64,000 nucleotides of DNA from a virus. Lineage: Duplodnaviria > Heunggongvirae > Uroviricota > Caudoviricetes. Positions within the stretch are counted from its first letter, which is position 1. Every line of letters begins with the position of its first letter. Location: IMG/VR virus record IMGVR_UViG_3300031088_000799; one strand, given 5' to 3'. A program made the translations under genes and the position numbers. The notes beneath the pieces are model-generated. The model had not been told where the DNA came from and searched no databases. It saw nothing but the letters and a program-made list of their open reading frames with translations. Shown piece after piece: positions 27,066 through 56,905 of the stretch.

Positions 27066-27477
27066 GTTCGAATGCTTAAAGAATATATACTCAAGAATGA
27101 CTATGTTAACAGCAATAGCACCGATTGCTATTGCTTTTTTTGGTCCATTTTTATTGTTATATATTTTAATTCCTAATCTTTTTATTTACTGTAAATATTA
27201 TAAAAATAAAGAAAATAATAGTGAAGTTTTTAATGCCCATATTAAAAATTTACTAAAAAGATCAATGTATTCTGTAATTATTTTGTTTGTTTTTTTATTA
27301 CCATTTATCTCAATGACTTTTATAGATTTTTCTAAAATATATCAAGGAACTGCATATCTTATTTTAATGATTTCAATGGTTTCACTATTTTTTGGCCTAT
27401 TAATTTCTTGGTCTTATTATCTATGGAGTTTAACAAAGTTATCATCAAGTTTTGATAAATCAATGTTTACAAAATGA
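27040..27477 (+). CDS. 4-TM small membrane protein, tandem paralog 4 of 4
   Basis: 145 aa. Overlaps the previous gene. Confidence 0.5.
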   Translation: MQIMQTQSEFECLKNIYSRMTMLTAIAPIAIAFFGPFLLLYILIPNLFIYCKYYKNKENNSEVFNAHIKNLLKRSMYSVIILFVFLLPFISMTFIDFSKIYQGTAYLILMISMVSLFFGLLISWSYYLWSLTKLSSSFDKSMFTK

Positions 27478-27505
27478 AAAAGACACATAAGTGTCTTTTT
27501 TAATG

Positions 27506-27915
27506 TTATTTTCCATGCCATAGATAACAAGGTTTAATCGCACAAATAGCATAGTGATTACTGCCAACATGTCCCCAGTCTTCGACATAAACTCGCCAAC
27601 CGAGGCTATTATCGCCATCATGATCACAATCACCTTCCCAACGCTCATTCAGTTCAATAAGTTTTGCATCCCTTCCTTGTAACCATGTTTTCGCAAAATC
27701 ATAGGCTTCTGCCGCATAAATAGGCTCAGGAAAAGCAACAGCATCTTTTGTCAAAGACCAGAGGAATACCAATCCTTTATTTGGCAGGACTACATATCCT
27801 TTTGCAGTTGCACCATCATCGTTATAACTGTCTAAACGGAATGCTAAATTAATAGCCATTTCCAGATGTTCATCTTTTGCACCATTGACATTAAAAATAC
27901 GGTTATCAAATCCCA
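27506..27915 (-). CDS. hypothetical protein (136 aa; start at MGFDNRIF with SD GAGGA)
   Basis: The ORF-track start at 27976 is probably an extension. The internal ATG at 27915 has a good SD. Confidence 0.45.
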
Positions 27916-27972
27916 TTACTAAATCCTCTAAAAATAGGTGAACATTGTATAACAAAAGGAAAAAATGGTCAA

Positions 27973-28788
27973 TCAAATAATATGCATTGATAATAAATCC
28001 AAGAAACGAGATTTTACATCATTGTCTAATGTCTGAAAAGATTCAACAGTTTCACCCAACTCTTTTTCCAGCATTAAACAAACCTCTTTATCAAAAAAAG
28101 CCTCAATCGCTGATTTAATATCAACACAAATGCGATCAGCCGTATTATTTCTTAAAGTAATGCATATTGATTTACGACAATTAACAGGAATATACATGTT
28201 ATATTTAAAATCAATAACTCCATCAATATAAACTAAATTGAAGTGGACTTTAAAAAAAGGTGAATAAAGATTATTTGCCATGTTTTCATATAAGACAAAA
28301 ATAGGTTTACTGTAATTGGTGGAGAGCGTATGTTCTTTGCAATAAACTATATCACCATCCTTGAATTGATTGTTAACAAATTCAATAGGATCTTGAAAAT
28401 TATAATAATTATCAAAGAACCGATATTGAACGCCTAAATCTGCATAAATTTTGTTAACTTTTGCAAGTAAATCAATATCTAAAAGACTTTTAAAAGACTC
28501 ATTGTAATCTAATATTTTATCATTTTTGGACATATGTATATTAAGCATTTCATTGCCTAAAAGATCAAAAATAAACGTAAATAGCATTCCATCAACACTA
28601 GAAGCTGTCGTAATCACCTTATGACTTTTTGCTTTAAAAATAATACTCGCCACCATAGGACTTGCGGGCGATAACTTACATTCTTCTTCATGAGTTTCTT
28701 CTTGAATAGAAATAAATTCAAGATTCTTTCTTGAAAGAAATGACATCATTGATTGTTTAAAGTCTTCGAACTTAATAGATTCACTCAT
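27973..28788 (-). CDS. Ct-motif paralog family member (...KSRFLDLLSMHII)
   Basis: 271 aa. Confidence 0.55.
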   Translation of the reverse strand: MSESIKFEDFKQSMMSFLSRKNLEFISIQEETHEEECKLSPASPMVASIIFKAKSHKVITTASSVDGMLFTFIFDLLGNEMLNIHMSKNDKILDYNESFKSLLDIDLLAKVNKIYADLGVQYRFFDNYYNFQDPIEFVNNQFKDGDIVYCKEHTLSTNYSKPIFVLYENMANNLYSPFFKVHFNLVYIDGVIDFKYNMYIPVNCRKSICITLRNNTADRICVDIKSAIEAFFDKEVCLMLEKELGETVESFQTLDNDVKSRFLDLLSMHII

Positions 28789-29564
28789 ATCATTTTCATC
28801 TCGGCTAATGTAATGTATCTTGTTAAATCATCTGAATCTTTTGACAATTCATTTTTATCCAGCTTAAGCAATTTCATTAAAATGGTACGTAAACGACGAA
28901 AAGCATAACGTTTCATGTGGTTATATAATTGATCTTCATTAACCAATTTATAATTTTTTCGAGAACGACCTATAGAATCTTTGGTTGAAATGGTACTAAT
29001 TCGCATTTCTAGATCACCATTAATAGGTTTGGTCAACTCCAATCTAACAACATGCTTAAAATAAACAATAAAATCAATGTTAACTAATAAGGTAGGTCTT
29101 TCTTTAAAATTAAAATGGCTACTACAAAATATTTTTTGATTATCCTTGATGTAATCTTGTCTATAAAAAGAAGGTCTATCATAATTGTTTAATGTTGTCA
29201 GGTCAACAGAAATATGAGACTCTTCTATATTTGGAAACTGATTTAAGCTTTTTTCGTATGAAATATAATCAAATAAATGATATTTATCAAAAATTTTAGC
29301 AACATTTGAAATCATACTAATGACATAATTCAATTGTAATCCAAAGTAATTATAAAAATGTTCCATCTCTGGTTTATTAGCTCTAATATAAAAACTATCT
29401 TTATTTGCATTACAAAAAAAACGGTTATTCGGAGCATCATAATGACGATAACGAGGTAACAAATCACTCAGATGATGTTCATGGGCAAATGGCATCACAG
29501 ATGACAAATGCTTTTGAAATGCTACAACATTATTAACAGTTTGTTCAGTGGGTATGTTTTTCAT
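28785..29564 (-). CDS. Ct-motif paralog family member (...DLTRYITLAEMKMI)
   Basis: 259 aa. Confidence 0.6.
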   Translation of the reverse strand: MKNIPTEQTVNNVVAFQKHLSSVMPFAHEHHLSDLLPRYRHYDAPNNRFFCNANKDSFYIRANKPEMEHFYNYFGLQLNYVISMISNVAKIFDKYHLFDYISYEKSLNQFPNIEESHISVDLTTLNNYDRPSFYRQDYIKDNQKIFCSSHFNFKERPTLLVNIDFIVYFKHVVRLELTKPINGDLEMRISTISTKDSIGRSRKNYKLVNEDQLYNHMKRYAFRRLRTILMKLLKLDKNELSKDSDDLTRYITLAEMKMI

Positions 29565-29572
29565 ATATAATC

Positions 29573-30280
29573 CTAAATACTATCCATAGCCAATAGTGTC
29601 ATAAATCGGCCAATATCTTCAAATTCAGCTTCCTGAATATCTTTCTTTGTAAACGTCTTAATTCGCTTAGTGGTTAACAAACAGATGATTCGTTGACGAA
29701 TAGCTTTTTTAATAATGTTATCAACTTCTTCCATATTGAAGCCTGTACTGATTGGAACCAAAAAACGTTCCTTACGAGCCAATGGCAATTCAACAAGAAT
29801 ATTAGGTTCAAAAATATCACCTGTCACATTCACCTGCATTGAAACTCTAACAGTTGGGTAAACTTCATAATATTTTCTAACAGTATAAATAGTTTCCTTA
29901 TTAGCAATAACATTTCTATCCTTCAAAGGAATAATCATATCTAGAAAACGATTATCTGAGCGAAAGTTTTCAATATCAAATGTTGGCATATTAGCCACAG
30001 TGGTAGTTAACTCTGTATTGTTCATATGTTCCATGTATCGATCTATGATTTGTCGAATACAACTCAAATCTAAATAGAATAGAGAATAAATTTCTTTAAC
30101 CATATCAAGTGGTAACGAAGTAATGTCAACATTAAATTTATTTTTACACAACTTATTTAAAATAATATAATGTTGATAACTATCTAATTCAAAAGGAAAT
30201 TTCTGAATTGAAGATCTATTATCATCAAATAATTCAAAATCTTTGATATATTGATAAATGCGTTCTTTAAAGTCTTTCAT
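29573..30280 (-). CDS. Ct-motif paralog family member (...DIGRFMTLLAMDSI)
   Basis: 235 aa. Confidence 0.6.
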   Translation of the reverse strand: MKDFKERIYQYIKDFELFDDNRSSIQKFPFELDSYQHYIILNKLCKNKFNVDITSLPLDMVKEIYSLFYLDLSCIRQIIDRYMEHMNNTELTTTVANMPTFDIENFRSDNRFLDMIIPLKDRNVIANKETIYTVRKYYEVYPTVRVSMQVNVTGDIFEPNILVELPLARKERFLVPISTGFNMEEVDNIIKKAIRQRIICLLTTKRIKTFTKKDIQEAEFEDIGRFMTLLAMDSI

Positions 30281-31020
30281 TAAATTTTATCCATGCTGAT
30301 AACGGTTAAGTATTGTTTCAAGGTTTCTTCATCAAAAGTAATCACATCAGAGCATTCATCAGGATAACGATCAATCAGAAAAGCTTTGAATTCACTCATT
30401 ACACCTAATTTAACAACTTGTTCAGCTACTGAATACAAATTATCATTGCCTAGAATTACTGAAAAATAGCCTTCTTCTGATAATGGGAATGTTAATTTTG
30501 CTCGCGGCTCGATGACTCCATTTTGATAATACAAAAATAATTGAATAAAAATACGTGAATCTCGTAAGTTCAAGCCGCCACTAAATTCTTTTGAATAGTA
30601 ATTTGCACCAGAAGCAATTCCAAAAAATGAGTCATACTTTGCTGCAAATTCTTCACAAAAATTAGCTTTAACATAAAAATGATTATAAGTATGCAATTTA
30701 AATTCACGCATACCTTCCATGTAAGATTTGCAAATGCTTTCTACTTTTTCAAAATCGAAGCCTAATTTTTTATAAATTTCACGCTCTACCTGTGAAAATT
30801 TACCAGAGAATACATAAATGACAGAATAATCTTTAAAAAAATTATTATCAACATTCAAGGAAGTAAAATGGTCTAACTCTGACCATGTAGATTTAAATTT
30901 TTTCAATTTTAAAGTTGTTGGATGCAGACCTCTAAATAGTAACTCATCATTATCGAAAGCAAATGCATTCAATGCAGAAATAATGTTATCTAATCCGCTG
31001 TTCTGTTCACTCATTTTCAA
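30280..31020 (-). CDS. Ct-motif paralog family member (...TLKQYLTVISMDKI)
   Basis: 246 aa. Confidence 0.6.
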   Translation of the reverse strand: MKMSEQNSGLDNIISALNAFAFDNDELLFRGLHPTTLKLKKFKSTWSELDHFTSLNVDNNFFKDYSVIYVFSGKFSQVEREIYKKLGFDFEKVESICKSYMEGMREFKLHTYNHFYVKANFCEEFAAKYDSFFGIASGANYYSKEFSGGLNLRDSRIFIQLFLYYQNGVIEPRAKLTFPLSEEGYFSVILGNDNLYSVAEQVVKLGVMSEFKAFLIDRYPDECSDVITFDEETLKQYLTVISMDKI

Positions 31021-36556: not shown

Positions 36557-37414
36557 CTATATATTAATCATTTCAAAAAGTTTTAATGTATCTTTATAAT
36601 TACAACTAAAATCAATACCATCATAATGTTTACTAGGTTTTAATTTTTCACATGCTAGTGTGTAACAGTAGTTATACACATAATCAAGCATTTCATCCTT
36701 GTCAATCTTCAACGAATAGGAAGAAACTAGCTCTTCATTAGCAAAATCAGCATTTTTATACTTATCACGACATTCTCCATTAATTGTTAAAACATTAGAA
36801 TCACGATCATAAACCATAAATACATCAGTCCATTTCAAATAAAGAATAAACAAAGTTTTATTAGAATTTAAACTTTCATAAAACTCAAAAAGACATGATG
36901 AATATTTACTAATAAATAAAAAAAGAGTCAAATGTCGTTTAACATCGTCAGTAGTGCTACAATAGGTTTCACCTTTATATTTCAATAATCCCATTTCTTT
37001 CTGATTGCTGAATTCAGCAGCATCTTTATAATTAAAAAAATAAAGCATTTCTTTCGGGTGTAACACAAAGCTAATATTTTGTTTATCTTTTAAGAATTCA
37101 AAAATTTTAGCAGCTACATCTTCTTCTACATGAAAAAAAATAGGAAACTCTAAATAATTAGTAACCGCATCAATATTAGAATTCGGCCCAACATAGGTGT
37201 TACGAGCTACTGTTTGCAATACACAAATATTATTTTTGTAAAAATAAATATCTTTTAAATCTTTTAATGCACAGGCGATACCGTTATTTGCAATGGCATA
37301 AATAATACTAAAATTATCATTTGAATAAAAAGAAATTTCTGCACCATATACAAATGATGTTTTAATAAAAAGGTGTTTTTTCATTTCTGGAAGAAGTTGC
37401 ATCGTTGATAACAT
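36557..37414 (-). CDS. Ct-motif paralog family member (...KDTLKLFEMINI)
   Basis: 285 aa. Confidence 0.55.
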   Translation of the reverse strand: MLSTMQLLPEMKKHLFIKTSFVYGAEISFYSNDNFSIIYAIANNGIACALKDLKDIYFYKNNICVLQTVARNTYVGPNSNIDAVTNYLEFPIFFHVEEDVAAKIFEFLKDKQNISFVLHPKEMLYFFNYKDAAEFSNQKEMGLLKYKGETYCSTTDDVKRHLTLFLFISKYSSCLFEFYESLNSNKTLFILYLKWTDVFMVYDRDSNVLTINGECRDKYKNADFANEELVSSYSLKIDKDEMLDYVYNYCYTLACEKLKPSKHYDGIDFSCNYKDTLKLFEMINI

Positions 37415-39112: not shown

Positions 39113-39751
39113 TCAGATTGAAAGCATTTCCATTGTCATAAGTAATGATTCATAGTCCATAGATTCTGCATCTACCTGATATTTTAAATCATCTGGAATA
39201 TCATCAAATTTACTTTTTAGCAAAGCTTTAAATGCATTTCTTTGATCAAATGCTCCATGTCCCATAAAAATATCACCTTTACTAAAATAATCTGATTTAT
39301 AAATATTACATTTTTCATTTTCTTCATATAAAAAGAATGTTCCAACATTTTTATCAAAATTAATGCAATGGTGAAAACCATGATGCCAACGAAGAAGAAT
39401 GCGGCTAGGCTTTAACACATCATGAATCACATTAGAGTCATAATAAATGTAGACAGTACAACCAAAATTATTCGTATGAGACATAGGATAATTAAGCATC
39501 TTTGAAAACGAATTATACTTTTCCATAAAACGTAAGCTGTATTCAAAGCAAGAGTGTGTTGTAACACCATTGGTTTTTAAAATATCATTAACCAAATCAT
39601 ACCAACCAGAATAAGAACCATCTTTAACAATTCTTTTATTTTTCCAGTAAAAATGAAATCTGTTTACTTTATATTTTGAAGGTGTTTTAAAATTAATAGT
39701 ACTGTCATGCTTAACATAATGTGAGCTAAGTAATTTGTCGAATTTTTTCAT
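39113..39751 (-). CDS. Ct-motif paralog family member (...YESLLMTMEMLSI)
   Basis: 212 aa. Confidence 0.55.
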   Translation of the reverse strand: MKKFDKLLSSHYVKHDSTINFKTPSKYKVNRFHFYWKNKRIVKDGSYSGWYDLVNDILKTNGVTTHSCFEYSLRFMEKYNSFSKMLNYPMSHTNNFGCTVYIYYDSNVIHDVLKPSRILLRWHHGFHHCINFDKNVGTFFLYEENEKCNIYKSDYFSKGDIFMGHGAFDQRNAFKALLKSKFDDIPDDLKYQVDAESMDYESLLMTMEMLSI

Positions 39752-40242: not shown

Positions 40243-41016
40243 ATGAAGATTAGAACTGGACTATTGAAAAATGATTATAAAGAAGAAACTGTTTATGATT
40301 GGCCGGAAGGTGCTGCTTCACAAGCGGGCGGTGGTGCCATTGATGGTCTTGGTCCATTAGTGTTTTTCGAAGTATTCATCGAAGGTATGTCTTATATCCG
40401 TGGCGAAGGAAAAAGCCTTCCAGAAGCTGAAAAAGCTGCTTGGGATAAATATCAAGTATATATGAATTGCAATCATGAATTCGAACGCTTTGGAGCGACC
40501 AGCCAACTGGGTAAATGCAAACATTGCAATATGAAAAAAGACAAAATGTTTAAAATGTTGACCACTTGTAACTCTTGTGGCAAACATGAAGTTATCCATA
40601 ATATTGGTCAAGAATACTATTGCTATGAGCATTACATGATTAAGCTTGTGAATAAAATCAATGATGCTAAAAATAAAGATGAACTGCTCGGAGAAGAAAA
40701 ATGGCTATGGTGTCATAATGTGCTTGAAGAACTAGGCCAATTTGATGGATTAAGTGATGTTGAAATTCACTCAACCTATTATAAAAACTACAATAAATTC
40801 TTTGATTATATGGTAGAAGTATGTCAAAAGCTTCAAATGGAACATAACCCAACCAGTAAAACACATTACGTTGATGTTCTTGAAATGATGGAACATGATG
40901 AAAAAGCGTTGAAAGCATTTTTTAATCTGTATCTGTATGAATATAAAGGCATTAAAATTAATCGTAGCACAACAGATCTTGAAAATTTGTTAATTGAATT
41001 TGTTATTACTCACTAA
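40243..41016 (+). CDS. hypothetical protein with Cys4 zinc-ribbon-like motif (CKHCN...CNSCGKH)
   Basis: 257 aa. Confidence 0.5.
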   Translation: MKIRTGLLKNDYKEETVYDWPEGAASQAGGGAIDGLGPLVFFEVFIEGMSYIRGEGKSLPEAEKAAWDKYQVYMNCNHEFERFGATSQLGKCKHCNMKKDKMFKMLTTCNSCGKHEVIHNIGQEYYCYEHYMIKLVNKINDAKNKDELLGEEKWLWCHNVLEELGQFDGLSDVEIHSTYYKNYNKFFDYMVEVCQKLQMEHNPTSKTHYVDVLEMMEHDEKALKAFFNLYLYEYKGIKINRSTTDLENLLIEFVITH

Positions 41017-41175
41017 AAAACAAAGTTAGACTAATGCAACCTGTTAATTGTGAAACCATTCATGATTTTGCCATTAAAAAAATTGATTAATATTTGAGTA
41101 TTTAAATTCTTAAAGTTTTGATTTATTACCTTTACTATGGTATAATAAATCATAATTTTTCAAAGGAGTATCATC

Positions 41176-42270
41176 ATGGGTGGTAATGCACTGGCTCTAG
41201 CCGTAGTAAACGGCAAACCTGAACGAGTAGGTGTTCAATCTAAACGCCTACATAAAAAAGATTTTGATAACTTGACTGCCCAAGTAGTTAAAGTACTGAA
41301 CATCGCTATTCAAAAAGCTAATAGTCTTGGTGCTAGCATTGTTGATGCTCCACATGAAGTAAAAGCTTATCGTCAAAAAGAAACCTTTGGCGATCTTGAC
41401 CTATTGGTAGATGGTGAACTATTCCAATTTGTATCATATGATGAAATCATGGAAATGCTGCGTGTTGAATTCAATCATACAGGACCACTTCCTTACAAAC
41501 CAAAAGACAAAAATGATATGGTAATGAGTATTGGTTTGCCTTCCGACGAATCCAATGTGTATTTTCAATTGGACTTGATTGCCTCCAATCGAGATTACTA
41601 TAACTTCCAATCTTCTTATTTGAACTGGAATGATTTAGGCAACTTGGTTGGTGTAGTGGCCAGCTCTAATGGGTTCCTTAAATATGGTCATGATGGTCTA
41701 AGATATCTATTCAGAGATGGTGATAACCTCTTTGAAAGTATCGTATTAACCAATGATTGGAACAAAGCCTTGGATTTCTTTGGTTATTCAAAAGAGCGTT
41801 ATTATGCTGGTTTTGATAACCTGTTGGAAATCTATGAGTATGCAGCATCTAGTCGGTATTTCAGTCCAAGCCTGTATGCTTTTGAGAATCGTAACCATAC
41901 ACAGAGGACTCGTGACCGTAAACGTCCAACCTATAATGGTTTCTTAACTTGGATTGAAGAACAAGATGCGGTGGGTTATTTCAACAGTAAAACACCCATG
42001 AACAGTGAAAAATGGAAAGAAAGGGTCTATGAATTCTTCCCAGAGTTTAAAAAAGTGGAAAAAGAGACTTGGAATAAACTGGAACGTAGAAAGCTGTTCA
42101 AAGAATATTTCAATGGCACAAGATTATTAAAGTTCAAGACAGAACTGAAAAATAAAGAAATTAGTGATTATTTGAAAATACTTGAAAAAAGCGTTCCTAA
42201 TATTGAAGATTTCGTACTTCAAAACAAAGAAAATGCAATGGAAATGTTGGTAAAAATGAAAGAGTGCTGA
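41176..42270 (+). CDS. putative Pol-beta-superfamily nucleotidyltransferase
   Basis: TFGDLDLLVDG resembles the Pol-beta GDxDxL catalytic diad. A possible third acidic residue at FQLDLIA lies about 55 aa later. By-eye only. Confidence 0.35.
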   Translation: MGGNALALAVVNGKPERVGVQSKRLHKKDFDNLTAQVVKVLNIAIQKANSLGASIVDAPHEVKAYRQKETFGDLDLLVDGELFQFVSYDEIMEMLRVEFNHTGPLPYKPKDKNDMVMSIGLPSDESNVYFQLDLIASNRDYYNFQSSYLNWNDLGNLVGVVASSNGFLKYGHDGLRYLFRDGDNLFESIVLTNDWNKALDFFGYSKERYYAGFDNLLEIYEYAASSRYFSPSLYAFENRNHTQRTRDRKRPTYNGFLTWIEEQDAVGYFNSKTPMNSEKWKERVYEFFPEFKKVEKETWNKLERRKLFKEYFNGTRLLKFKTELKNKEISDYLKILEKSVPNIEDFVLQNKENAMEMLVKMKEC

Positions 42271-42301
42271 GCACTCTTTTTTACTAGAGATCAAATTAAA
42301 T

Positions 42302-43060
42302 ATGTTCAAAATATTAATGCCACCAGAAAATTATCACGATAACATTCAACATAAATTTTTATCTATAGATACAGAAGATAACGACTGTAAAAGTTTGTTT
42401 AAAGCTATCAGTAGAAACATGAAGCATTATTTTTCTATGCATTTAAATACGATTGAAAAAAATCATGAATCTTATCGAATCATAGGGGATAGATGGGCGG
42501 ATATGAATGTAGGTGCCGCCCCTAAGAAAGATGAGTGTATTGAAATTTCTGATGTAAAGAATAACAATTCGTATATCTATAAAAATTTTATAGAAAATCT
42601 TATGCGTAAAGCTCATGATAGAATGAACTTACCATTTCTTAACTACATCCCTGAAAAACATAAGAAAGCAGAATTTGTATTTTCAGACTTCTATAATGAT
42701 AAAAAAATAAGAGTTACATACTATACATCACCTGTTATGTTGACTATGTGCTTTAACAAAGACAGCTTAACAATTGTATATTTAATGAACTATGATACTC
42801 AAAAAATGATGCTAGAGATTCAATTGGATCATAATAAAAGTATTATTTCAACCGAAGTTTACTTTAATGATGCCCGCTCAAATGAAACCGAAATGATTTC
42901 ACTTAATACAAAACAATTAGACTGCTTAATCATACTCAGTCACTATACAGATAATGAAGAAATTGATTTCAATATAGAGCAATATGTAGATGCTATTTTA
43001 GAAGAAAATTATGATGTTTTTTTTAATTATGTGAAACTTAAAGAAATGATATATATTTAA
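42302..43060 (+). CDS. Ct-motif paralog family member on plus strand (...FNYVKLKEMIYI)
   Basis: 252 aa. Confidence 0.5.
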   Translation: MFKILMPPENYHDNIQHKFLSIDTEDNDCKSLFKAISRNMKHYFSMHLNTIEKNHESYRIIGDRWADMNVGAAPKKDECIEISDVKNNNSYIYKNFIENLMRKAHDRMNLPFLNYIPEKHKKAEFVFSDFYNDKKIRVTYYTSPVMLTMCFNKDSLTIVYLMNYDTQKMMLEIQLDHNKSIISTEVYFNDARSNETEMISLNTKQLDCLIILSHYTDNEEIDFNIEQYVDAILEENYDVFFNYVKLKEMIYI

Positions 43061-43081
43061 GGATAAAAAAATAAAAAACAG

Positions 43082-43110
43082 TTGACATTTTTGAAAATAA
43101 AGATCACAAT
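43082..43110 (+). promoter_or_regulatory. sigma70-like promoter of the thr-leader/thrS unit (TTGACA, 17-nt spacer, CACAAT)
   Basis: TTGACA at 43082-43087. -10-like hexamer 17 nt downstream. Confidence 0.45.
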
Positions 43111-43133
43111 ATAAGTAATTGGAGAAAATTCAG

Positions 43134-43211
43134 ATGAAATTATTTGCAGTAAACACAACGACTACAACAACTCAGTTTAATAGCTGGGATGGTCGATTGT
43201 TGCTGTCATAA
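43134..43211 (+). CDS. Thr-codon-rich leader peptide MKLFAVNTTTTTTQFNSWDGRLLLS (25 aa)
   Basis: SD GGAGA 9 nt upstream. Six consecutive Thr codons at 43155-43172. Followed by alternative antiterminator/terminator pairings. Confidence 0.55.
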   Translation: MKLFAVNTTTTTTQFNSWDGRLLLS

Positions 43212-43228
43212 AATAATCGGAACCATAG

Positions 43229-43257
43229 AACCCAGCTAAACGGCTGGGTTTTTTTAT
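43229..43257 (+). terminator. attenuator terminator (gaacccagc taaacg gctgggttt + T-run). Alternative antiterminator pairs 43181-43188 (tagctggg) with 43231-43238 (cccagcta).
   Basis: Strong hairpin plus T7 run 48 nt before the thrS start. An 8-bp competing stem lies upstream. Confidence 0.6.
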
Positions 43258-43304
43258 GCCTAAAATAAATGATTTACACAACGAAACTAACTAGGAGATA
43301 TAAA

Positions 43305-44483
43305 ATGAACGACAAATTAAACGAAGAAAAGAGATACATGCAAGTGGCCAAGGAAATGAATTTGTTCATGTTAGCAGAAAGTGCTGGAGTAGTGTACTGG
43401 AAACCAGAAGGTCTTAAATTGTATGAGAATTTAAAGTCTTTTATCCGTAAACACCATGAAGATGCTGGATACCTTGAAGTTAAAAGTCCATCTATTGTGG
43501 TACCTAATCTATTTGAACAATCTGGACATATGGATAAGTATAAAGACAACATGTTTTTCCTTAACTCATCCGAATCCAGTAACTACGCTTTACGTCCAAT
43601 GAGCTGTCCTAACCATATCCTTATCTATCAATCTGAAAAAAGAAGCTATCGTGAACTTCCACTCCCTATTTTTGAATTTGGTGAAGTATTCCGTAATGAA
43701 GCATCAGGTGCTCTACAAGTTTTATTTAGACAAAGACAATTCTGCCAAGATGATAGCCATGTTTTTGTAAATGAAGAAAATTTAATCAACTCCGTTAACC
43801 AATATATTCAGATGAGCCAAAAGGCATATGAAGAATTGGGGTTTAAAAAGATTAAATATGCAATTGCCCTACGACCAGAAAAACGTTTTGGTGATGATAA
43901 CTTATGGGATAAAGCAGAAGAATCATTAAGAGAAGCCTGCAGAATGAATAATCTTGACTTTGTAGAGAACGAAAATGACGGTGCTTTTTATGGGCCTAAA
44001 CTAGAACTTCAAGTTGAAGATAAACTGGGTAGATCATGGCAGCTCGGTGTTATTCAATTGGATTATGTATTACCAGAACGTTTTGGTCTTGAATACATTG
44101 ACGCTGACAACAAACCTAAGCGTCCTATTATTTTACACCATGCGGTTTTAGGTTCACTTGAAAGAATGATTGGTATTTTGTTAGAATCCTTTGGAAAAGA
44201 AATACCTGATTTCTTACATCCAGTGAAATCAGTTGTTATTCCTGTATCTGAAAAATCTATGAACTATGCACAAGTTGTGCTGTCACATTTAGATAAGAAG
44301 TCATCAAAGTTGGATCAAAGTGCAGATTCATTAGGTAAAAAAATACGCTACTGGAAAGAACGTGGTGTTCCTGAAATTATTGTAGTAGGAGAAGCTGAAC
44401 AACAAAAATATGAGCAAGAAGGCATTATTAGTTTTGTAGTGAATCGTGGAAATGTAAAAGAGGTCAAAGAAATAAAAAAGTAA
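43305..44483 (+). CDS. thrS: threonyl-tRNA synthetase, catalytic + anticodon-binding domains only (N-terminal TGS/editing domains absent)
   Basis: FRNEASGALQVLFRQRQFCQDDSHVFV matches ThrRS motif 2/3. Start MNDKLNE has SD AGGAGA. The protein corresponds to E. coli ThrRS residues ~240-642. Confidence 0.8.
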   Translation: MNDKLNEEKRYMQVAKEMNLFMLAESAGVVYWKPEGLKLYENLKSFIRKHHEDAGYLEVKSPSIVVPNLFEQSGHMDKYKDNMFFLNSSESSNYALRPMSCPNHILIYQSEKRSYRELPLPIFEFGEVFRNEASGALQVLFRQRQFCQDDSHVFVNEENLINSVNQYIQMSQKAYEELGFKKIKYAIALRPEKRFGDDNLWDKAEESLREACRMNNLDFVENENDGAFYGPKLELQVEDKLGRSWQLGVIQLDYVLPERFGLEYIDADNKPKRPIILHHAVLGSLERMIGILLESFGKEIPDFLHPVKSVVIPVSEKSMNYAQVVLSHLDKKSSKLDQSADSLGKKIRYWKERGVPEIIVVGEAEQQKYEQEGIISFVVNRGNVKEVKEIKK

Positions 44484-44492
44484 TGTAATCAG

Positions 44493-44520
44493 AAAAAGAG
44501 GCTTCGGCCTCTTTCTTATT
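44493..44520 (+). terminator. intrinsic terminator agaggcttcggcctct + T-run
   Basis: GC stem with a tetraloop-like ttcg. Confidence 0.65.
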
Positions 44521-45136
44521 GATAAAACATAATAATAGCTCTTTTTTCATCATCTGTCATTTCATTAACAGGCTTATCAAGAACCTGTTTAAAATAATAA
44601 TGTCTAAAAGCTTCATTAATAATATTGATTTGCTCATTAATATTATTAAATTTTAGATAACTGAATTCAAAGCGAATAATGCCAGCAGGTGTTTTCATTG
44701 CCATATATGGCAATGCAATAGGCCGTGGATTATCAGGTCTGAGAAAAAATACATTACTAAAAAAGAAACTTTTAGTATCTAATGTCAGATTTTCTTTATC
44801 TCTGGTATGTTTTTCAATCAAAATGACATTTTCTAAACAAGCTAAAAATAGTTTACGTGATTGAATATGTTCCGCCATATTCATAACAATATTACTTTCA
44901 TTTTTAGCATTTTTATAAAATTTAAATGTATTTTGAAAAAATAAATCATTTTCATCCAGCATATGCTCATCCATATCAAAAAATGATTCACCAACAATAA
45001 TGAAATTATTTTCAGCTAAAGCATCGTCAAAAGAAATTGTATTTAAATGCCTGTATATTTCACCATCACAATGTGTATAAGTATATTTATTGTTATTTAA
45101 GTTTTCCCTTAAAAAACGTTCAAAATTTTTAATCAT
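44516..45136 (-). CDS. Ct-motif family member, sub-clade (...DDEKRAIIMFYQ)
   Basis: 206 aa. One of three tandem paralogs. Confidence 0.5.
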   Translation of the reverse strand: MIKNFERFLRENLNNNKYTYTHCDGEIYRHLNTISFDDALAENNFIIVGESFFDMDEHMLDENDLFFQNTFKFYKNAKNESNIVMNMAEHIQSRKLFLACLENVILIEKHTRDKENLTLDTKSFFFSNVFFLRPDNPRPIALPYMAMKTPAGIIRFEFSYLKFNNINEQINIINEAFRHYYFKQVLDKPVNEMTDDEKRAIIMFYQ

Positions 45137-45145
45137 AAAAAGCCC

Positions 45146-45808
45146 TCAATAATAATACATCTTAACGATTTGCTTTTCTGATTTAGTAAGCTTATCTGTT
45201 GCACCCTTTTTTTCAATAACTTTTGAATAGTATCTAATAAAAAATTGATTGTCAATATTATTTCTTGCTGTTTCAAAACTATCTTTATCATTTTTGACAA
45301 CAACAAAGCATTCTGGAAACTGTTGAAAAGCTTTAAATTTAAATATTATTTTTTGATATACTTGTTTTTTTAAAGAATCAAAAACATAGACGGGAAATAT
45401 TTCAAATTGTTCAAAATCATAATAACCAAGTAATAAACGATTAGGAATATCAGTATTTATTAGGCGTAAATGATTTAAAATTAATCGGAATGATTGTTTA
45501 GCATAGAGGTTATCAATATGGCCTAAATAGACTTTATTTTTAGATGGTTTTGTAGATAAAAACTTTTTAGAAATTTCAAATGAGCATTCATGCTCAGTAT
45601 CATGTTTAAAATAAAATAAACGACCAATGGGATAATACTGATCAAACCCATCACTCAGTTTTGGAGTTCCATCAGGATTAATTCGTTCTTGGACAATGCT
45701 ATAACCAGCCGCAATATGATACCGATAACAATGATTACTTGTATCATTAAGTAAATAATCATTAAAAAATTGAACGTATGAAAGCAATGAAAGATCACTT
45801 TGTTCCAT
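45146..45808 (-). CDS. Ct-motif family member, sub-clade (...SEKQIVKMYYY)
   Basis: 220 aa. Confidence 0.5.
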   Translation of the reverse strand: MEQSDLSLLSYVQFFNDYLLNDTSNHCYRYHIAAGYSIVQERINPDGTPKLSDGFDQYYPIGRLFYFKHDTEHECSFEISKKFLSTKPSKNKVYLGHIDNLYAKQSFRLILNHLRLINTDIPNRLLLGYYDFEQFEIFPVYVFDSLKKQVYQKIIFKFKAFQQFPECFVVVKNDKDSFETARNNIDNQFFIRYYSKVIEKKGATDKLTKSEKQIVKMYYY

Positions 45809-46491
45809 TAAAAGTAAACCATCTTGATAAGATCTTGTTCCTGCTTGTTAAAAAATTTACCACGCTCAATTGTTTTACGCTCAATAATACCATCATAGAA
45901 GCGTTGTTGAAATTCTTTCTCCATTTCATCCATTGCTATTAAAAATTTATGATCATCATTTAAGATGGTAACAGTAACGTCTGGAAAGCCTTTAATAGCT
46001 TTAAAGGTAATGTTTGCACATTGACTTACAATATGACGAACATAACTGTATCGATAAAAATATGTCACTTTTATTTCTTGTGTTTCAAAGTTTGACACTT
46101 TGTGTTTTCGCTGCATAGCACCCGCAATGTTAAGTAGTTTTAGATGTCTTTTCAATCGACTGAAAAATTCTTTTGCGTGAAAGTCATTCAAATAATCAAA
46201 TTTAAAAGAATCTGTATTTTTTATTAATTGAAATGAAATTTCCTTATCAACTTCATCATGATAAGGGCAGTAGCTACTCAATAGAGCAATACAAACATAT
46301 TCATAATATTGATTATGTTTACCAGTATACACATCAAATGCTGATTTTATAATTTTAGAGCCATTTCTTAAAGGAAAACGAACAACCCCAGAGCTTTGAC
46401 CTTCGTATAAACAATCGGAAGTATTGTATTTAGACGAAAAATATTCTGCAAGCCTATCTCGATTTTTATTGTCACTCTGATAATTATTCAT
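45808..46491 (-). CDS. Ct-motif family member, sub-clade (...QEQDLIKMVYF)
   Basis: 227 aa. Confidence 0.5.
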   Translation of the reverse strand: MNNYQSDNKNRDRLAEYFSSKYNTSDCLYEGQSSGVVRFPLRNGSKIIKSAFDVYTGKHNQYYEYVCIALLSSYCPYHDEVDKEISFQLIKNTDSFKFDYLNDFHAKEFFSRLKRHLKLLNIAGAMQRKHKVSNFETQEIKVTYFYRYSYVRHIVSQCANITFKAIKGFPDVTVTILNDDHKFLIAMDEMEKEFQQRFYDGIIERKTIERGKFFNKQEQDLIKMVYF

Positions 46492-47339: not shown

Positions 47340-47897
47340 TTAAATACACACCATGCGAACTAAATCTCGCTCAGCTTCTGTCATAGTGCTAATAGGTTTA
47401 ATCAATTCTGCTGGCAATTCTTTAGCGAAAGAACTGGCATAATATTCTAAAATTTCTTGTTCAAATGATGCAATATCAGTATCTTTTGTTTCTAAAAGAG
47501 ACATATAATCATGACCATTGATAATTTCATCAAAATCAAAAGCATAAACTTTTTCAATTTTTCCATATACCGTAACAAAATGATAATCATAAGCTTTATA
47601 ACATTCTTGTCCTGATTGATTGAAAAGTTCATCATATGCTTTAATAAGATGACTCAATTGAGATTTAAAATGAAACTTTTCGGCAAGGTGTAACCCAAAT
47701 TTATGCCAAAGATTATGACGATAATCAAGACTGAAAGCATGAAACTCATTGCCAGTGTCAGAATACGCAATAGTTTGCTGCTGAATGAGGTTGGGTCTTT
47801 CTTTTTTGAAAGTTGATTTCTCAATACCATGAGCAACAAAGAAATCTTTAAGTTGGTCATAAATAATATTGTGTGAAAATGGATGCGTATCAATCAT
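47340..47897 (-). CDS. Ct-motif paralog family member (...MTEAERDLVRMVCI)
   Basis: 185 aa. Confidence 0.5.
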   Translation of the reverse strand: MIDTHPFSHNIIYDQLKDFFVAHGIEKSTFKKERPNLIQQQTIAYSDTGNEFHAFSLDYRHNLWHKFGLHLAEKFHFKSQLSHLIKAYDELFNQSGQECYKAYDYHFVTVYGKIEKVYAFDFDEIINGHDYMSLLETKDTDIASFEQEILEYYASSFAKELPAELIKPISTMTEAERDLVRMVCI

Positions 47898-48757: not shown

Positions 48758-49378
48758 TTAAATTACATACATTAAGAAGACTTGCAACTCGTCAGCATTC
48801 ATCTTAGTAAGAGGTTTACGAAGTTCATGTGGAAGGTCTGCCATATATCTAATATAAACTTGATAAAAAAATTCATTGATAACATCATCATAAGCATTAT
48901 CATCCATGCCATCATATAAGATAATCTCAATTCCGTCATCATTTTCATCAAACGGATCAACTAAACGAACAATGCGAGCAACTTTTAGCAAACCATCCAA
49001 GTCAAAATAAAAATACTCTTCATAGTCATCAAAAGGGTCATTTGTTACATGGAGTATTTTAGCTATATCATGAATTTTTGTTAATACTGGAAATTGTATT
49101 TCACCCTCTATGACAATTTTATGGTTAGCGGAAGCATGAGAAACCAGTAGTTGTTCACAATTAGAAAGTCTCCAAAAAATACTGAAACAATCTACTGAAA
49201 TTTTGCCATAATCACAATAATTATTTTGTGTAGTCAGATCTTCCATAATGGCATCAATAGAATAAGTTGTTTCATTTGTTTTAAAAGTAATCGAAGAAAG
49301 ATAATGACGAATATCATCACGAGTATATTCACTCGAAATCTTGGGATAGTTCTTGTATTGAAAGAAATCAGAACTCAT
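48758..49378 (-). CDS. Ct-motif paralog family member (...MNADELQVFLMYVI)
   Basis: 206 aa. Confidence 0.5.
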   Translation of the reverse strand: MSSDFFQYKNYPKISSEYTRDDIRHYLSSITFKTNETTYSIDAIMEDLTTQNNYCDYGKISVDCFSIFWRLSNCEQLLVSHASANHKIVIEGEIQFPVLTKIHDIAKILHVTNDPFDDYEEYFYFDLDGLLKVARIVRLVDPFDENDDGIEIILYDGMDDNAYDDVINEFFYQVYIRYMADLPHELRKPLTKMNADELQVFLMYVI

Positions 49379-50265
49379 ATTGATTCCATCATCAGTAATG
49401 AGAAATAACGATTACGCATTTCTATATCATCTAAATCAATTTCATTTTTAGTTAACCCATAACGCTTTTTAATCACAGGGATCAGTCGGCTCATAAATTG
49501 ATCTACCATAGATTTTTCTAGTGTTTCCTTACAAACTGGGCGAGACATTGAAATCAAATCTTCATAGCATCGAGCAGCCAGTAAAGTTCGTGTAGTGTAG
49601 ATTTTATCTTCATGAATATCAATGATAAAACTAGCTTGATAATGTTGATCGAAATAAACATTAAAATCAAACATAGGTTTAACCTGATTATCTTTATCAT
49701 AATAAAAATGAATTCTTCCGAAAACTCTTGAATTTACAGGATGTTGATACAATCTGTTTTTCTTATAAGCCTTATTAAAAATTAATCTAGCTATCGTATA
49801 ATCATTACAAATATTCTCTTGAGTGTAAGAAGAATTAAAATAAACATAATTAAAAGGTTTTTTTTCAAAATTATTAGAGAAGTCTGAATGCAACGTTAAC
49901 AAACCTGCCGATTCAAGTTGAACAGCGACTGCAAAATACGCATTCGCCACTTTATCAATAGTATCTACATTGATTTTGAATGCGTTACAAAAATCTTTAT
50001 TAATGGTTGGAAAAGATTTACCATCAAAGTTATCAATTTTAAAAATAATTCTGGATTTATGAATAAAAGCATTAAAATAGTTAGCTTTTAGTGGGCTATC
50101 TAAATGAAAAACAAAATGACCAAACTGACCGTTCACGCCAACCCCTTCATGCGGGAATGAAACTGGAATATAATCTTTTAGACTATTGTAGATATTATGA
50201 GCCACCTGTCGCTCATTTTTAAAAAGGTCATTTTCAACGGACATAAATACTCCAAATTTTTGCAA
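49375..50265 (-). CDS. Ct-motif paralog family member (...MRNRYFSLLMMESI)
   Basis: 296 aa. 4-bp overlap with the downstream gene. Confidence 0.55.
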   Translation of the reverse strand: MQKFGVFMSVENDLFKNERQVAHNIYNSLKDYIPVSFPHEGVGVNGQFGHFVFHLDSPLKANYFNAFIHKSRIIFKIDNFDGKSFPTINKDFCNAFKINVDTIDKVANAYFAVAVQLESAGLLTLHSDFSNNFEKKPFNYVYFNSSYTQENICNDYTIARLIFNKAYKKNRLYQHPVNSRVFGRIHFYYDKDNQVKPMFDFNVYFDQHYQASFIIDIHEDKIYTTRTLLAARCYEDLISMSRPVCKETLEKSMVDQFMSRLIPVIKKRYGLTKNEIDLDDIEMRNRYFSLLMMESI

Positions 50266-50335: not shown

Positions 50336-52210
50336 TTAGGCTGAAATGTATTTTGCAATAAATTCAGCTTCGGTCAAGATTTCAATGTCAATACCTTTCG
50401 CTTTCAAGGCTTGAGCATCAGCGAGTTTACTGCCAGCACTTTCACCATAGACAAGGATTTGGGTGGTTTTACTCGCTTTACTTTGAATTTTAGCACCTTT
50501 TGAAGTAAAGAATGCTTCAATTTCTTTTCGAGAGTAACTAACCATTGTGCCAGTTACAACCACGTTCTTACCTGAGAACGGACTATCCGTATCTACAACT
50601 ATTTGTGACGACAATTCAAGGTTGAACAAAGGACGCATTGTGTTAATCAAATCCAGCTTCTCACGAATACCAGCAGGAATGAGAACGCTGTTAACTTTGC
50701 CATAACCCTTCATAGCAATCAATTTGTCAGCTTCCACTTCATGCAAGGCATCAATATTGAAAACTTTAAGCAACTTTTTAGAGTCGCCTTTACCAAGGCT
50801 TTCGATACCAAATGCGGCAAGGAAACGCCAATCTTCAATTTGGCTTGACTTACTGAGTTCAAGAGCAGCGACCAAATTAGGACTTTCACCTTTACCAAAA
50901 CCAGCATTCAAGAAATCTTGCTCTTTCATTGCGTAAATTTTTTCCAAAGAGTCAAATCCCGCTTCAACCAACTTAGTAATTGTTTTACCACCAAAACCAT
51001 CATTGTTAGCCAATGTTGCAAAGAAGTGCAACAAAGTCTGAACTACTTGCTCTGAACAACCACTATGGTTTGGGCAGAACAGGAAATGACTGTCCCATTT
51101 CAATTCAGTTGCACAGCAAGGGCAATGAGTCGGAACGACATATTCTGCTGGTGTAATCACTTTTTCAATTTTTGGAATAACTTCACCACTACGGATAATT
51201 TCAATAACTGCACCCGGACCAATTTTGTTAGTTCGAACGTTATTCATATGGTGAGCAGTCACATTACTAATCGTTGCACCCGAGACAAGCACTGGCGAAA
51301 GAGCCAACACAGGCGTTACAGTACCAGTTCGACCAACTTGAAGTTTAACATCAAGCACGGTAGTTTGTGCAGTTTCACCACGTTCTTTAAATGCACACTG
51401 CCATTTGTTATGATGGTTATTATAACCCATGTATTCTTTGATTTCTGGAACAACAGACTCAATTACAAACCCATCAATCAGATAAGGAATTTTCGAACGC
51501 AAATCATTGTTGATTTGTTCAAGGTTATCAAGAATGTCAATTGCTGTGCCGACATAAGCTTCCAAAGTGGTATAAGGCACAAAGTGAATAGCACCGTCAT
51601 CCAAAGCCTTCTGAGTTTCAGCACGAGTGTCTTCCTGAGACAATACGCTACTCATCATGTTACGCGGATGCGGGAAAATAGCCGCAAGATTTTCTGAGAA
51701 ATAATCCTTTTCAACTACAAGTTCACCACGACCTACTGCATTATCCTTACGAATAACACCTTTGTCGAAAATGTAAGTAATGTCGTTACCACGCAGACCA
51801 TCACCACGAGTAGCCAGCTTATCAAATTCATAAGAACCTGCAAAACCATCAAGTTTACAAGTTACTTTGTATTTTGCTTGAATATGAAGATCGTGTGCAA
51901 CATCTTCTACACGCTTAAACCATTTAGCCAATTTTTCTTTGGTATAGAATTTTTCAGTAGACAGCATAGGCGAAGAGTGAGAGATAGCGTTTTCACCAAC
52001 TTCTTCTTTATCAATGTCTTCAAACCAACCTGATTCTGGAAACTTCTCACGGAAATCTTCAACAATGGCATCATAACTTTCGTCTTCAATAGGATCTAGA
52101 CCAAATACTTCTGTTTTAGGAAGGGATTTTACATAGCATTTACTGTAGTCATCAAGCAGTGCAATAAATTCTGCTTCGGTTACTGGGTATTTTACGTCAT
52201 TGATATTCAT
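50336..52210 (-). CDS. ligA: NAD-dependent DNA ligase
   Basis: Adenylation motif KLDG. Cys4 zinc finger CPCC...CPNHSGC. HhH region. C-terminal BRCT (GKNVVVTGTM..RKEIEAFF). A TGnTATAAT extended -10 and a GGAG SD lie upstream. Confidence 0.9.
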   Translation of the reverse strand: MNINDVKYPVTEAEFIALLDDYSKCYVKSLPKTEVFGLDPIEDESYDAIVEDFREKFPESGWFEDIDKEEVGENAISHSSPMLSTEKFYTKEKLAKWFKRVEDVAHDLHIQAKYKVTCKLDGFAGSYEFDKLATRGDGLRGNDITYIFDKGVIRKDNAVGRGELVVEKDYFSENLAAIFPHPRNMMSSVLSQEDTRAETQKALDDGAIHFVPYTTLEAYVGTAIDILDNLEQINNDLRSKIPYLIDGFVIESVVPEIKEYMGYNNHHNKWQCAFKERGETAQTTVLDVKLQVGRTGTVTPVLALSPVLVSGATISNVTAHHMNNVRTNKIGPGAVIEIIRSGEVIPKIEKVITPAEYVVPTHCPCCATELKWDSHFLFCPNHSGCSEQVVQTLLHFFATLANNDGFGGKTITKLVEAGFDSLEKIYAMKEQDFLNAGFGKGESPNLVAALELSKSSQIEDWRFLAAFGIESLGKGDSKKLLKVFNIDALHEVEADKLIAMKGYGKVNSVLIPAGIREKLDLINTMRPLFNLELSSQIVVDTDSPFSGKNVVVTGTMVSYSRKEIEAFFTSKGAKIQSKASKTTQILVYGESAGSKLADAQALKAKGIDIEILTEAEFIAKYISA

Positions 52211-52294: not shown

Positions 52295-53104
52295 TTAAAT
52301 TTTTGTCATGTCAAAAAGCATATTAATATTGGATACATCAAATTGATCGAAAGTAATGGGGCTACCAGTATACGCTTCATATTGAGCTTTGTAATTGATA
52401 TTAAATAATTCACGTTTCAGAGAATAAGTCATATCATCAATAAATTGTTCAAAACTTTCACAGTTGCGTGATGATTTAAATAATTGTTGAGTTCGATTTC
52501 TATTCCCTAATTGAAGAATCTTAATTTGGTAATAAAAATTGTTTTGCATTTTTCGGACATCAATAACTAGCTCCTGCTGGACTTTATCATCCCAACCATT
52601 TGTTACAAATTTAGTAGGAATATGGAAGGTGTTTTGAATACCTGCAAAACTTTCATTGAATACAATATCATAAGATAACGAAACAGGAATCGTAACATCA
52701 CGATGACCTTTTTCATAAAATTCATGAATTTCAGCAGGAACCGTCATACAAGGAGTTTGTTTAGAGTACCAAAATGATGACAACTTATCACTCATGCGTT
52801 CTGGTGTTTTAAACCGACTTTCAAATCCACTGCCAGAAGTCAACAATCTATAATCAAACATAATGGAAAATAGGTTTGAACAAATTTCAAACATCTCACG
52901 CTGAGTAAAGGTGTCATCATGATCAATGGCATTAAGTAATGTCACATAGCTTCCATTAAAAAACACCTGATTGCCTTTTTGCTCTTTATCTAGCATAAAA
53001 ACAAATACTCCATCCTTTTCAATAAAATATGGTTTTAAAGAAGATAGAAAATCAGATGGAAGATTAGTGCCTTTTTTATAATGTTTTTCAATGAGTGTAA
53101 TCAT
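52295..53104 (-). CDS. Ct-motif paralog family member (...SNINMLFDMTKI)
   Basis: 269 aa. Confidence 0.55.
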   Translation of the reverse strand: MITLIEKHYKKGTNLPSDFLSSLKPYFIEKDGVFVFMLDKEQKGNQVFFNGSYVTLLNAIDHDDTFTQREMFEICSNLFSIMFDYRLLTSGSGFESRFKTPERMSDKLSSFWYSKQTPCMTVPAEIHEFYEKGHRDVTIPVSLSYDIVFNESFAGIQNTFHIPTKFVTNGWDDKVQQELVIDVRKMQNNFYYQIKILQLGNRNRTQQLFKSSRNCESFEQFIDDMTYSLKRELFNINYKAQYEAYTGSPITFDQFDVSNINMLFDMTKI

Positions 53105-56158: not shown

Positions 56159-56905
56159 TTAGATATAAGTCATAGCTATAATAGCTTGTTCTCGTTTATT
56201 AAACATTTTATATGTTTGCAGAAACTGCGTATAATCTGTACCTAATAACTTTGAACTGCTAAAGGAACAATCAGTGATAATATCAGAAAGGCTTAATGTT
56301 GAATTTGTCCTTGATCTGGGCCGCAAATAAGTGACATCATAAATACTTATATTTTCCAAAACAAGGCCATCATCATTTACTCTTTTAATAGGTCTTTCAG
56401 TAATCGCGTAAATACAACCATTGATACATTTTTGATACTTTCGACCATCATCAAATCTATAAGTAATTGTTGCAATTTGGAGATTTTTTTTATCTATATC
56501 ATAATCAATAGCAATCAATTTCAAACTCTTTAAAATTATTTTTTGAGAAAAAACAACTCTGACTGGAATACCACTGGTGTTATAAGTAATACGAAATCCT
56601 TCTTTATAAATTTCATTTTCATTAAACACGATTTCCTGAAAAATATAATAATTTTGAAAAAGACCATCAACAATAGGAAAGCTTAAATATAATATACATC
56701 CTTGGTTATTAGTATAAGTTAAGGAATCATCTGAAATTTTTTCAAAACCAATAGATTTAAATAATAGAATTAACTCATTACTATCTAAATGAAACTCTAT
56801 TAAATTTGAAGATTGTTTTATCATTTTAGGTAAAATTAAAATGTAATCCTGCATATTATTTTTATTAATAATATGTCTTTCTATGGAATGAAAATCAATT
56901 CTCAT
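56159..56905 (-). CDS. Ct-motif paralog family member (...NKREQAIIAMTYI); intact homolog of the IS-disrupted gene
   Basis: 248 aa. Its C-terminal region aligns with both halves of the split gene at 57858-58012 / 60680-61297. Confidence 0.55.
   Translation of the reverse strand: MRIDFHSIERHIINKNNMQDYILILPKMIKQSSNLIEFHLDSNELILLFKSIGFEKISDDSLTYTNNQGCILYLSFPIVDGLFQNYYIFQEIVFNENEIYKEGFRITYNTSGIPVRVVFSQKIILKSLKLIAIDYDIDKKNLQIATITYRFDDGRKYQKCINGCIYAITERPIKRVNDDGLVLENISIYDVTYLRPRSRTNSTLSLSDIITDCSFSSSKLLGTDYTQFLQTYKMFNKREQAIIAMTYI

Follow-up and report, generated by a model that had tools for sequence, protein, structure and literature searches.

What controls the short threonyl-tRNA synthetase (ThrRS) gene found in the viral record IMGVR_UViG_3300031088_000799? 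Upstream of this gene, the 64-kb stretch (called the window throughout) contains a short open reading frame (ORF) with six successive Thr codons, followed by a hairpin and a T-run. An initial annotation had described positions 43082 to 43305 as a leader-peptide attenuator in front of an N-terminally truncated thrS. Our analysis leads to a similar answer, namely that the element is very probably a classical, ribosome-mediated attenuator of transcription, which would sense charged tRNA-Thr and thereby control the monocistronic gene of a short ThrRS.

We read the sequence between positions 42700 and 43500 and confirmed all the coordinates given in the initial annotation, i.e., those of the promoter, the Shine-Dalgarno (SD) sequence, the leader ORF, its six Thr codons, the pairing segments, the seven T residues, and the thrS start. 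The features of the unit are as follows.

43082–43110, plus strand: sigma-70-type promoter, with TTGACA (43082–43087), a 17-nt spacer, and CACAAT (43105–43110); 10/12 in the promoter scan
43121–43124, plus strand: leader SD sequence GGAG, 9 nt 5′ of the ATG, from reading of the sequence
43134–43211, plus strand: leader ORF MKLFAVNTTTTTTQFNSWDGRLLLS, 25 codons plus stop (ATG at 43134, stop at 43209–43211)
43155–43172, plus strand: regulatory codons, six successive Thr codons (ACA ACG ACT ACA ACA ACT)
43146–43177, plus strand: region 1, the 5′ strand of the 1:2 (anti-antiterminator) hairpin in the minimum-energy fold, spanning the Thr codons
43181–43207, plus strand: region 2, with the core UAGCUGGG at 43181–43188; its partner is region 1 or region 3
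43231–43238, plus strand: pairing segment of region 3, CCCAGCUA
43243–43248, plus strand: pairing segment of region 4, GCUGGG
43181–43238, plus strand: antiterminator hairpin (2:3), with an outer stem 43181–43188/43231–43238 and an inner stem around 43191–43198/43216–43225
43227–43255, plus strand: intrinsic terminator (3:4) predicted by RNAfold, with an 11-bp stem 43227–43237/43242–43252 and the loop AAAC
43249–43255, plus strand: U-tract of seven T residues, overlapping the terminator stem
43294–43299, plus strand: SD sequence of the ThrRS gene, AGGAGA, kept in homologues
43305–44483, plus strand: short ThrRS gene, 392 aa, ATG at 43305
44495–44514, plus strand: terminator-like hairpin AAAGAGGCTTCGGCCTCTTT 3′ of the ThrRS gene, from the terminator scan

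The start codon of the ThrRS gene lies 49 nt past the U-tract and its SD sequence 39 nt past it, and the terminator-like hairpin directly 3′ of the gene indicates that the unit is monocistronic. A general terminator scan missed the hairpin at 43227–43255 because its stem runs into the T-run. The Thr run of the leader is not a chance occurrence. It is the sole run of five or more Thr residues in the six-frame translation of the window, and only two SD-preceded short ORFs of the window, the leader included, have at least four identical residues in a row.

RNAfold analysis of positions 43112 to 43310 yielded an energy of −42.3 kcal/mol (z = −3.56). In the minimum-energy fold, the Thr-codon stretch is paired with a GU-rich stretch located after region 2 to give a long hairpin; the 11-bp terminator follows, and the SD sequence of the ThrRS gene is unpaired. 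The 1:2 duplex has an energy of −18.0 kcal/mol, as compared with a mean of −8.3 for shuffled sequences. We then mimicked a stalled ribosome by holding the nucleotides −15 to +13 around the A site unpaired during folding. With this mask placed at Thr1 or Thr3, the minimum-energy fold was the 2:3 antiterminator, devoid of the terminator, whereas placing the A site at Thr6 left region 2 partly covered and restored the terminator. Constrained folding, which the initial annotation had proposed as a check, thus flips the leader of the window from terminator to antiterminator.

Homologous loci were collected by exact look-up of database proteins, and further loci by scanning IMG/VR and a metagenome collection with the clade-specific motif FRQRQFCQDDSH. 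In this way, 23 distinct regions upstream of short-ThrRS genes of the clade were obtained, from genomes with G+C contents of 22 to 68%. In 23/23 loci, a short ORF of 20 to 30 codons with 5 to 10 successive Thr codons is followed by a hairpin and a T-run just before the ThrRS gene. The leader peptides, such as MNKFVFNTTTTTTLLKAGLVGYCLE, MFNFIAITTTTTTTCQNTGQVVTCLR, MSFFATTTTTTTSGFGPRGSVLR, and VKSIVLRLTTTTTTTTTTACPGRWCSRC, have only the Thr run in common; they differ in the residues on either side of it and in the length that precedes it, and the third positions of the Thr codons differ between loci, as would be expected if the codons, not the peptide, matter. The search for the same leader in related genomes, also proposed in the initial annotation, therefore recovered the Thr-codon run in every case, and the structural elements of the attenuation layout are present both in the window and at all these loci. 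A promoter resembling TTGAC[AT]-17-TAnAAT is found at the same relative place in 16/16 AT-rich loci. The gene upstream of the element is divergent or unrelated in several loci (L109, L110, L111, and L118), arguing that the hairpin is not simply the terminator of that gene.

The alternative pairings are conserved as well. All 23 leaders have a segment, 0 to 13 nt 3′ of the Thr run, with complementarity to the 5′ terminator arm, and in 22 of them the duplex of region 2 with this arm outperforms 300 shuffles (p ≤ 0.05). The region 2/region 3 pairs include AGCUGGG/CCCAGCU in the window, GGCUGGG/CCCAGCC in L084, CUGGGC/GCCCAG in L110, CACUGGG/CCCAGUG in L104, CUGGCUUAC/GUAAGCCAG in L103, and UGCUGG/CCAGCA in L117, and wholly different GC-rich stems are found in the high-G+C loci L095 to L106 and L119. 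In L103 and L104, regions 2, 3, and 4 change together, a signature of two mutually exclusive helices with one common strand. For 13 AT-rich leaders, regions 2, 3, and 4 were aligned without gaps (alignment A3). Pairing in this alignment amounts to 80% for the 2:3 helix, with five pairs changed on both sides and a covariation of 0.160 versus 0.077 for shuffled alignments, a score reached by 2/500 shuffles. The 3:4 helix is 90.9% paired with compensatory changes, and its score was reached by 0/500 shuffles. Support for the helices collapsed in controls with slid partners. Both hairpins proposed in the initial annotation thus stand: the intrinsic terminator is an 11-bp stem with U7 kept through compensatory changes, and the antiterminator is backed by complementarity at all loci, by the shuffle tests, and by covariation.

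The folding behavior of the window extends to the homologues in part. In unmasked folds of full leaders, the terminator stem was present in 20/20 leaders tested, and region 2 was paired with upstream sequence in 19 of these 20. When the transcript was ended before region 4 and the ribosome mask was applied, regions 2 and 3 were paired in 20/20 leaders. A short ORF, cognate codons, a terminator, a mutually exclusive 2:3 pairing, and predicted sequestration of region 2 by region 1 are thus all found. These are the structural features of a classical leader-peptide attenuator, in which read-through would in addition increase upon limitation of the cognate charged tRNA.

A model of regulation can be proposed on this basis. 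A host-type RNA polymerase would start at the promoter at 43082–43110, and translation of the 25-codon leader by a ribosome would accompany synthesis of the leader RNA. If Thr-tRNA(Thr) is plentiful, the ribosome would pass the six Thr codons and free region 1, which could then pair with region 2 (at 43182–43207); with 1:2 formed, the 3:4 terminator would form, and transcription would end at the U-tract (43249–43255). If Thr-tRNA(Thr) is scarce, the ribosome would stall at the early Thr codons and cover region 1. Regions 2 and 3 would then pair before region 4 is made, preventing formation of the terminator and letting transcription proceed into the ThrRS gene. The product, a ThrRS core devoid of editing, would raise the charging of tRNA-Thr and thereby close the feedback loop.

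Several observations weigh against this model. The −10 box of the window, CACAAT, is weak. The 1:2 duplex is better than shuffles in only 15/23 leaders; this helix is the weakest element, and sequestration of region 2 by region 1 is weaker in some members. When region 4 was included in the masked folds, the terminator was still part of the minimum-energy fold of many homologues. As the terminator represents the equilibrium fold in those cases, antitermination would need to be kinetic there. Kinetic antitermination is accepted for trp. Alignment A3 is anchored on invariant CUGG/CCAG cores, and its counts therefore lean toward structure; the per-sequence shuffle tests of the pairing between region 2 and the terminator arm are independent of this anchoring and free of its bias. 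Finally, coupling between transcription and translation in the host is assumed.

In L093, L104, L097, L106, and L119, the best −10 box is located 5 to 9 nt before the start codon of the leader and no SD sequence was seen, which suggests that some hosts use a leaderless mRNA for translation of the leader peptide.

Other mechanisms could be envisaged for such a leader. The general layout, a short ORF with alternative hairpins, is also that of drug- or nascent-peptide-stalling sensors of the ermC, cat, or cmlA type, which would be blind to the supply of Thr-tRNA, and inducible resistance genes are frequent on mobile elements. However, conservation of the peptide is limited to the Thr run, the regulated gene is the cognate synthetase, and control goes through a terminator rather than through sequestration of an SD sequence, that of thrS being unpaired and 39 nt past the U-tract. 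We thus find a sensor of this type very unlikely. Alternatively, the Thr run might slow ribosomes and tune expression through translation or mRNA stability, by queuing or by release of a stable terminated small RNA of ~140 nt, with no conditional antitermination. The terminated leader would indeed be a stable, hairpin-rich RNA, as suggested by the z score of −3.56 given above. This explanation nevertheless accounts neither for the complementarity of region 2 to the 5′ arm of the terminator despite sequence turnover nor for the placement of region 2 immediately beyond the RNA that a ribosome would cover when stalled at the early Thr codons, and it has in our opinion very little chance of being correct.

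The ORF might also be incidental, with the leader RNA bound by a factor in trans, either uncharged tRNA as in a T-box or ThrRS itself as in the E. coli operator. It is established that thrS is regulated in these ways in Bacillus and E. coli, respectively. At gathering score, Rfam identified only two tRNAs in the whole window, and at E ≤ 10 nothing significant was found in the leader, with no T-box match. Thr_leader (RF00506) scored 14.0 bits against a gathering score of 55 (E = 3.3). The leader is thus not a member of the Thr_leader or T-box families. Furthermore, across the 23 loci only the Thr codons and pairing cores of the leader are conserved, and the N-terminal domain with which E. coli ThrRS is known to block ribosome binding is missing from the protein, so that binding of a trans factor appears extremely unlikely. 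Last, the hairpin and U-run might do no more than terminate the upstream gene (42302–43060), the Thr-rich ORF being a frame that arose by chance in AT-rich spacer DNA. This idea deserves next to no credence: the hairpin does lie 167 nt past the stop codon of that co-directional gene and short ORFs abound in such spacers, but the comparative data already contradict it, given the ORF and Thr run kept in 23/23 loci with variable third codon positions, the lack of any other such Thr run in the window, the persistence of the element at loci with a divergent or unrelated upstream gene, the conserved promoter separating that gene from the leader ORF, and the covariation of regions 2 and 3.

Is the gene controlled by the putative attenuator a functional synthetase? 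According to Pfam, the 392-aa product contains only PF00587 (class II core) and PF03129 (anticodon-binding domain). It matches the TIGR00418 thrS equivalog with 395.8 bits (cut-off, 383.65) over profile positions 173 to 536. Alignment with E. coli ThrRS covers residues from about 242 to 602, and the TGS and editing (N2) domains are missing; the protein corresponds to the N-terminally deleted core in crystal structures such as 1EVK. The Cys residue in PMSCP and the His residue in each of DDSH and ILHH align with Cys and His residues of the solved ThrRS structure 6vu9, and the E. coli ThrRS chains 1qf6 and 1evk are matched over an identical span. We take them to be the three zinc ligands, from what is known of E. 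coli ThrRS. The truncation reported in the initial annotation corresponds to a natural form. Indeed, protein databases contain at least 120 clusters of short ThrRS proteins (376 to 421 aa, 57 to 96% identity), and the short proteins form a clade distinct from full-length ThrRS; the gene is a natural short ThrRS gene, neither broken nor a pseudogene. All clade members have lengths of 376 to 403 aa, and those from genomes of 22 to 68% G+C share 52 to 96% identity with one another and 39 to 43% with full-length ThrRS.

A ThrRS mutant without N1 and N2 was reported to have null editing activity in a study of duplicated ThrRS (PMC4787780). By analogy, the short-ThrRS clade is expected to charge tRNA-Thr without Ser proofreading. 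This widespread clade of natural minimal ThrRS proteins without an editing domain raises the question of tolerated Ser mischarging, and the attenuator suggests that the short enzymes are made on demand. We considered resistance to obafluorin of the ObaO type as a reason for an extra ThrRS. ObaO resistance rests on Gly463Ser (PMC11252418). This candidate was rejected, as ObaO is full-length and the protein of the window keeps GAFYGPK.

The short clade has no close relative in annotated plasmid and phage collections, in which tblastn searches retrieved only ordinary ThrRS proteins with at most 45% identity, the two whose annotation was inspected being full-length. Among the matches listed for generic ThrRS motifs in GTDB genomes, there were only full-length ThrRS proteins with at most 45% identity. 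Megablast of positions 41000 to 45000 against phages gave no match, nor did a search of IMG/VR with patterns derived from the query protein alone.

How does the element compare with known systems? E. coli thrL-thrABC similarly has a leader peptide rich in Thr codons, 1:2, 2:3, and 3:4 hairpins, and an intrinsic terminator, and it senses tRNA charging via stalling. It controls Thr biosynthesis, however, whereas the element of the window would control a synthetase; in addition, the thrL peptide mixes Thr and Ile codons while the run of the window is uninterrupted Thr, and there is no sequence or structure homology between the two. The closest system in design is E. coli pheM-pheST, in which a leader with cognate codons responds to low charged tRNA by allowing more cognate synthetase to be made. 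Yet pheST is specific for Phe and encodes a housekeeping, two-subunit chromosomal enzyme, in contrast with the single, short, auxiliary-type ThrRS on a phage-like replicon described here. For the auxiliary, indolmycin-resistant trpRS1 of Streptomyces coelicolor, an attenuator has reportedly been demonstrated experimentally. A comparative study predicted attenuators before trpS2 and leuS of Streptomyces and drew the parallel with pheST (PMC1262725). As proposed for the window, these are leader-peptide attenuators before aminoacyl-tRNA synthetase genes, and the trpS attenuator governs an additional gene copy that responds to a drop in cognate tRNA charging by being induced. They differ in amino acid and phylum, with no short ThrRS involved and no described spread across very different G+C contents.

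Known regulation of thrS itself goes through other sensors. The E. coli thrS operator is likewise a 5′ leader, but there ThrRS binds tRNA-like arms that overlap the SD sequence and blocks the ribosome; the window has no such element. Blocking of ribosome binding involves the N-terminal domain of E. coli ThrRS. The T-box of Bacillus thrS and thrZ resembles the mechanism proposed for the window in that charging of tRNA-Thr is sensed and a choice between terminator and antiterminator is made before a ThrRS gene, thrZ being an auxiliary copy. The difference lies in the sensor, which is uncharged tRNA on RNA in Bacillus and would be a translating ribosome in the window. We found no description in the literature of a Thr leader before thrS, and a Thr leader was present in 0/80 full-length thrS loci from GTDB genomes. 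These literature searches and the Rfam results agree with the initial annotation, in which no thrS gene under Thr-leader attenuation was known. That claim needs to be qualified in one respect, as leader attenuation of aminoacyl-tRNA synthetase genes is already known or predicted for pheST and for Streptomyces trpS and leuS (PMC1262725). The proposed mechanism is classical, and the novelty resides in its target, thrS of a minimal, editing-less clade, and in its carriers, which are likely mobile and phage-like. With this element, thrS would join the few synthetase genes that are subject to leader-peptide attenuation. The comparative evidence for it is unusually clean, since one design persists although the sequences have turned over completely between 22 and 68% G+C. 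The compact element of ~175 nt could also serve as a ready-made sensor of Thr-tRNA for synthetic biology.

A different element was observed upstream of full-length thrS genes of Burkholderiales (L004, L007, L009, L011, L012, L015, L016, L022, L023, L031, L038, and L070). About 100 to 150 nt upstream of the gene, a nucleotide-conserved AAGAGCGAGAAAGGCA-N4-5-GGTTATGACACCGCGAAC sequence is followed by a GC hairpin and a T-run. The short ORF at that place (MTPRT...) has no conserved Thr run, and the conserved sequence therefore looks like an RNA element. It matched no Rfam family.

What kind of replicon carries the attenuator? The window has ~30% G+C and carries genes for TyrRS, SerRS, ThrRS, a divergent LigA, tRNA-Lys, and tRNA-Pro. 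Approximately 85% of its genes are orphans, with dozens of paralogues among them. SD-like motifs precede 42 of its 69 ORFs (61%), versus 3.8% of random positions, which indicates that the window is expressed in a prokaryote. A eukaryotic giant virus, which the AT-rich sequence, the NAD ligase, the aminoacyl-tRNA synthetase genes, and the megabase contigs might have suggested, was rejected on the basis of these SD motifs and also of the sigma-70-type promoters and intrinsic terminators. Phage-family genes in the window or its flanks include phrog_13746 and a Pol-beta-like nucleotidyltransferase common to jumbo phages, as well as genes for R2K ATP-grasp and PNKP-like HAD domains and for a 791-aa protein that is 45% identical to proteins of the Xanthomonas jumbo phages XacN1 and Xoo-sp13. 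The three aminoacyl-tRNA synthetase genes, LigA, and the tRNAs add to this phage-like content. One relative is found on a 437-kb IMG/VR contig. Close relatives are present on contigs of 1.04, 1.33, 1.36, 1.54, and 1.86 Mb, including a 1,539,155-bp contig in two JGI samples (loci L086, L101, and L109 being involved). If these megabase relatives are phage genomes, they would be far larger than any described. The carrier may be a very large phage-like element or else an unusual cell.

Next to the ThrRS gene, the high-G+C relatives have SSB, HATPase_c_3, RCC1, and MBOAT genes. The occurrence of the cassette in very different genomes fits with horizontal mobility. Tentatively, the attenuator and the short ThrRS gene might form a mobile cassette on giant phage-like replicons of bacteria, whose hosts span 22 to 68% G+C. 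The cassette would use host ribosomes as a gauge of Thr-tRNA, and the minimal, editing-free ThrRS would be made only when charging by the host fails, for instance upon takeover of translation or when a defense system or an antibiotic acts against ThrRS or tRNA-Thr. We regard this scenario as possible, though somewhat less probable than its converse. If it is true, the element would be the first amino-acid-specific attenuator known for a synthetase of a virus or mobile element, and if the carriers are giant phages, a phage would read tRNA charging in its host directly to regulate its own translation genes.

No leader with cognate codons was found before the TyrRS and SerRS genes of the window, the ArgRS gene of L111, or the Glx-RS gene of L109. 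Upstream of the TyrRS gene (5058–6317), a 16-codon, SD-preceded ORF, MNASTTFHFQKSFTVRY, is located at 6417–6467 on the minus strand, with a terminator-like hairpin on one side and the TyrRS gene on the other. It was considered as an analogous attenuator and rejected for lack of a Tyr run and of any obvious alternative pairing.

The divergent NAD-dependent DNA ligase gene (50336–52210, minus strand) is syntenic with the ThrRS gene in L086 and L109. Its product scores 318 bits against a LigA equivalog cut-off of 444, in a match that covers only the C-terminal two-thirds of the LigA model.

The window also contains ~35 paralogous ORFs of about 185 to 300 aa, mostly in same-strand arrays, at 11765–31020, 36557–37414, 39113–39751, 42302–43060, 44516–46491, 47340–47897, 48758–50265, 52295–53104, and 56159–56905. 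They share the C-terminal pattern hydrophobic-x-x-M-x-x-I/V/Y, as in ...LLAMDSI, ...VISMDKI, and ...IKMVYF, and none of the members tested matched Pfam or PHROG. At 25616–27477 on the plus strand, four paralogous ORFs of 142 to 160 aa lie in tandem. Their N termini are similar (..N.Y..L/M followed by a hydrophobic stretch), and they probably encode small membrane proteins.

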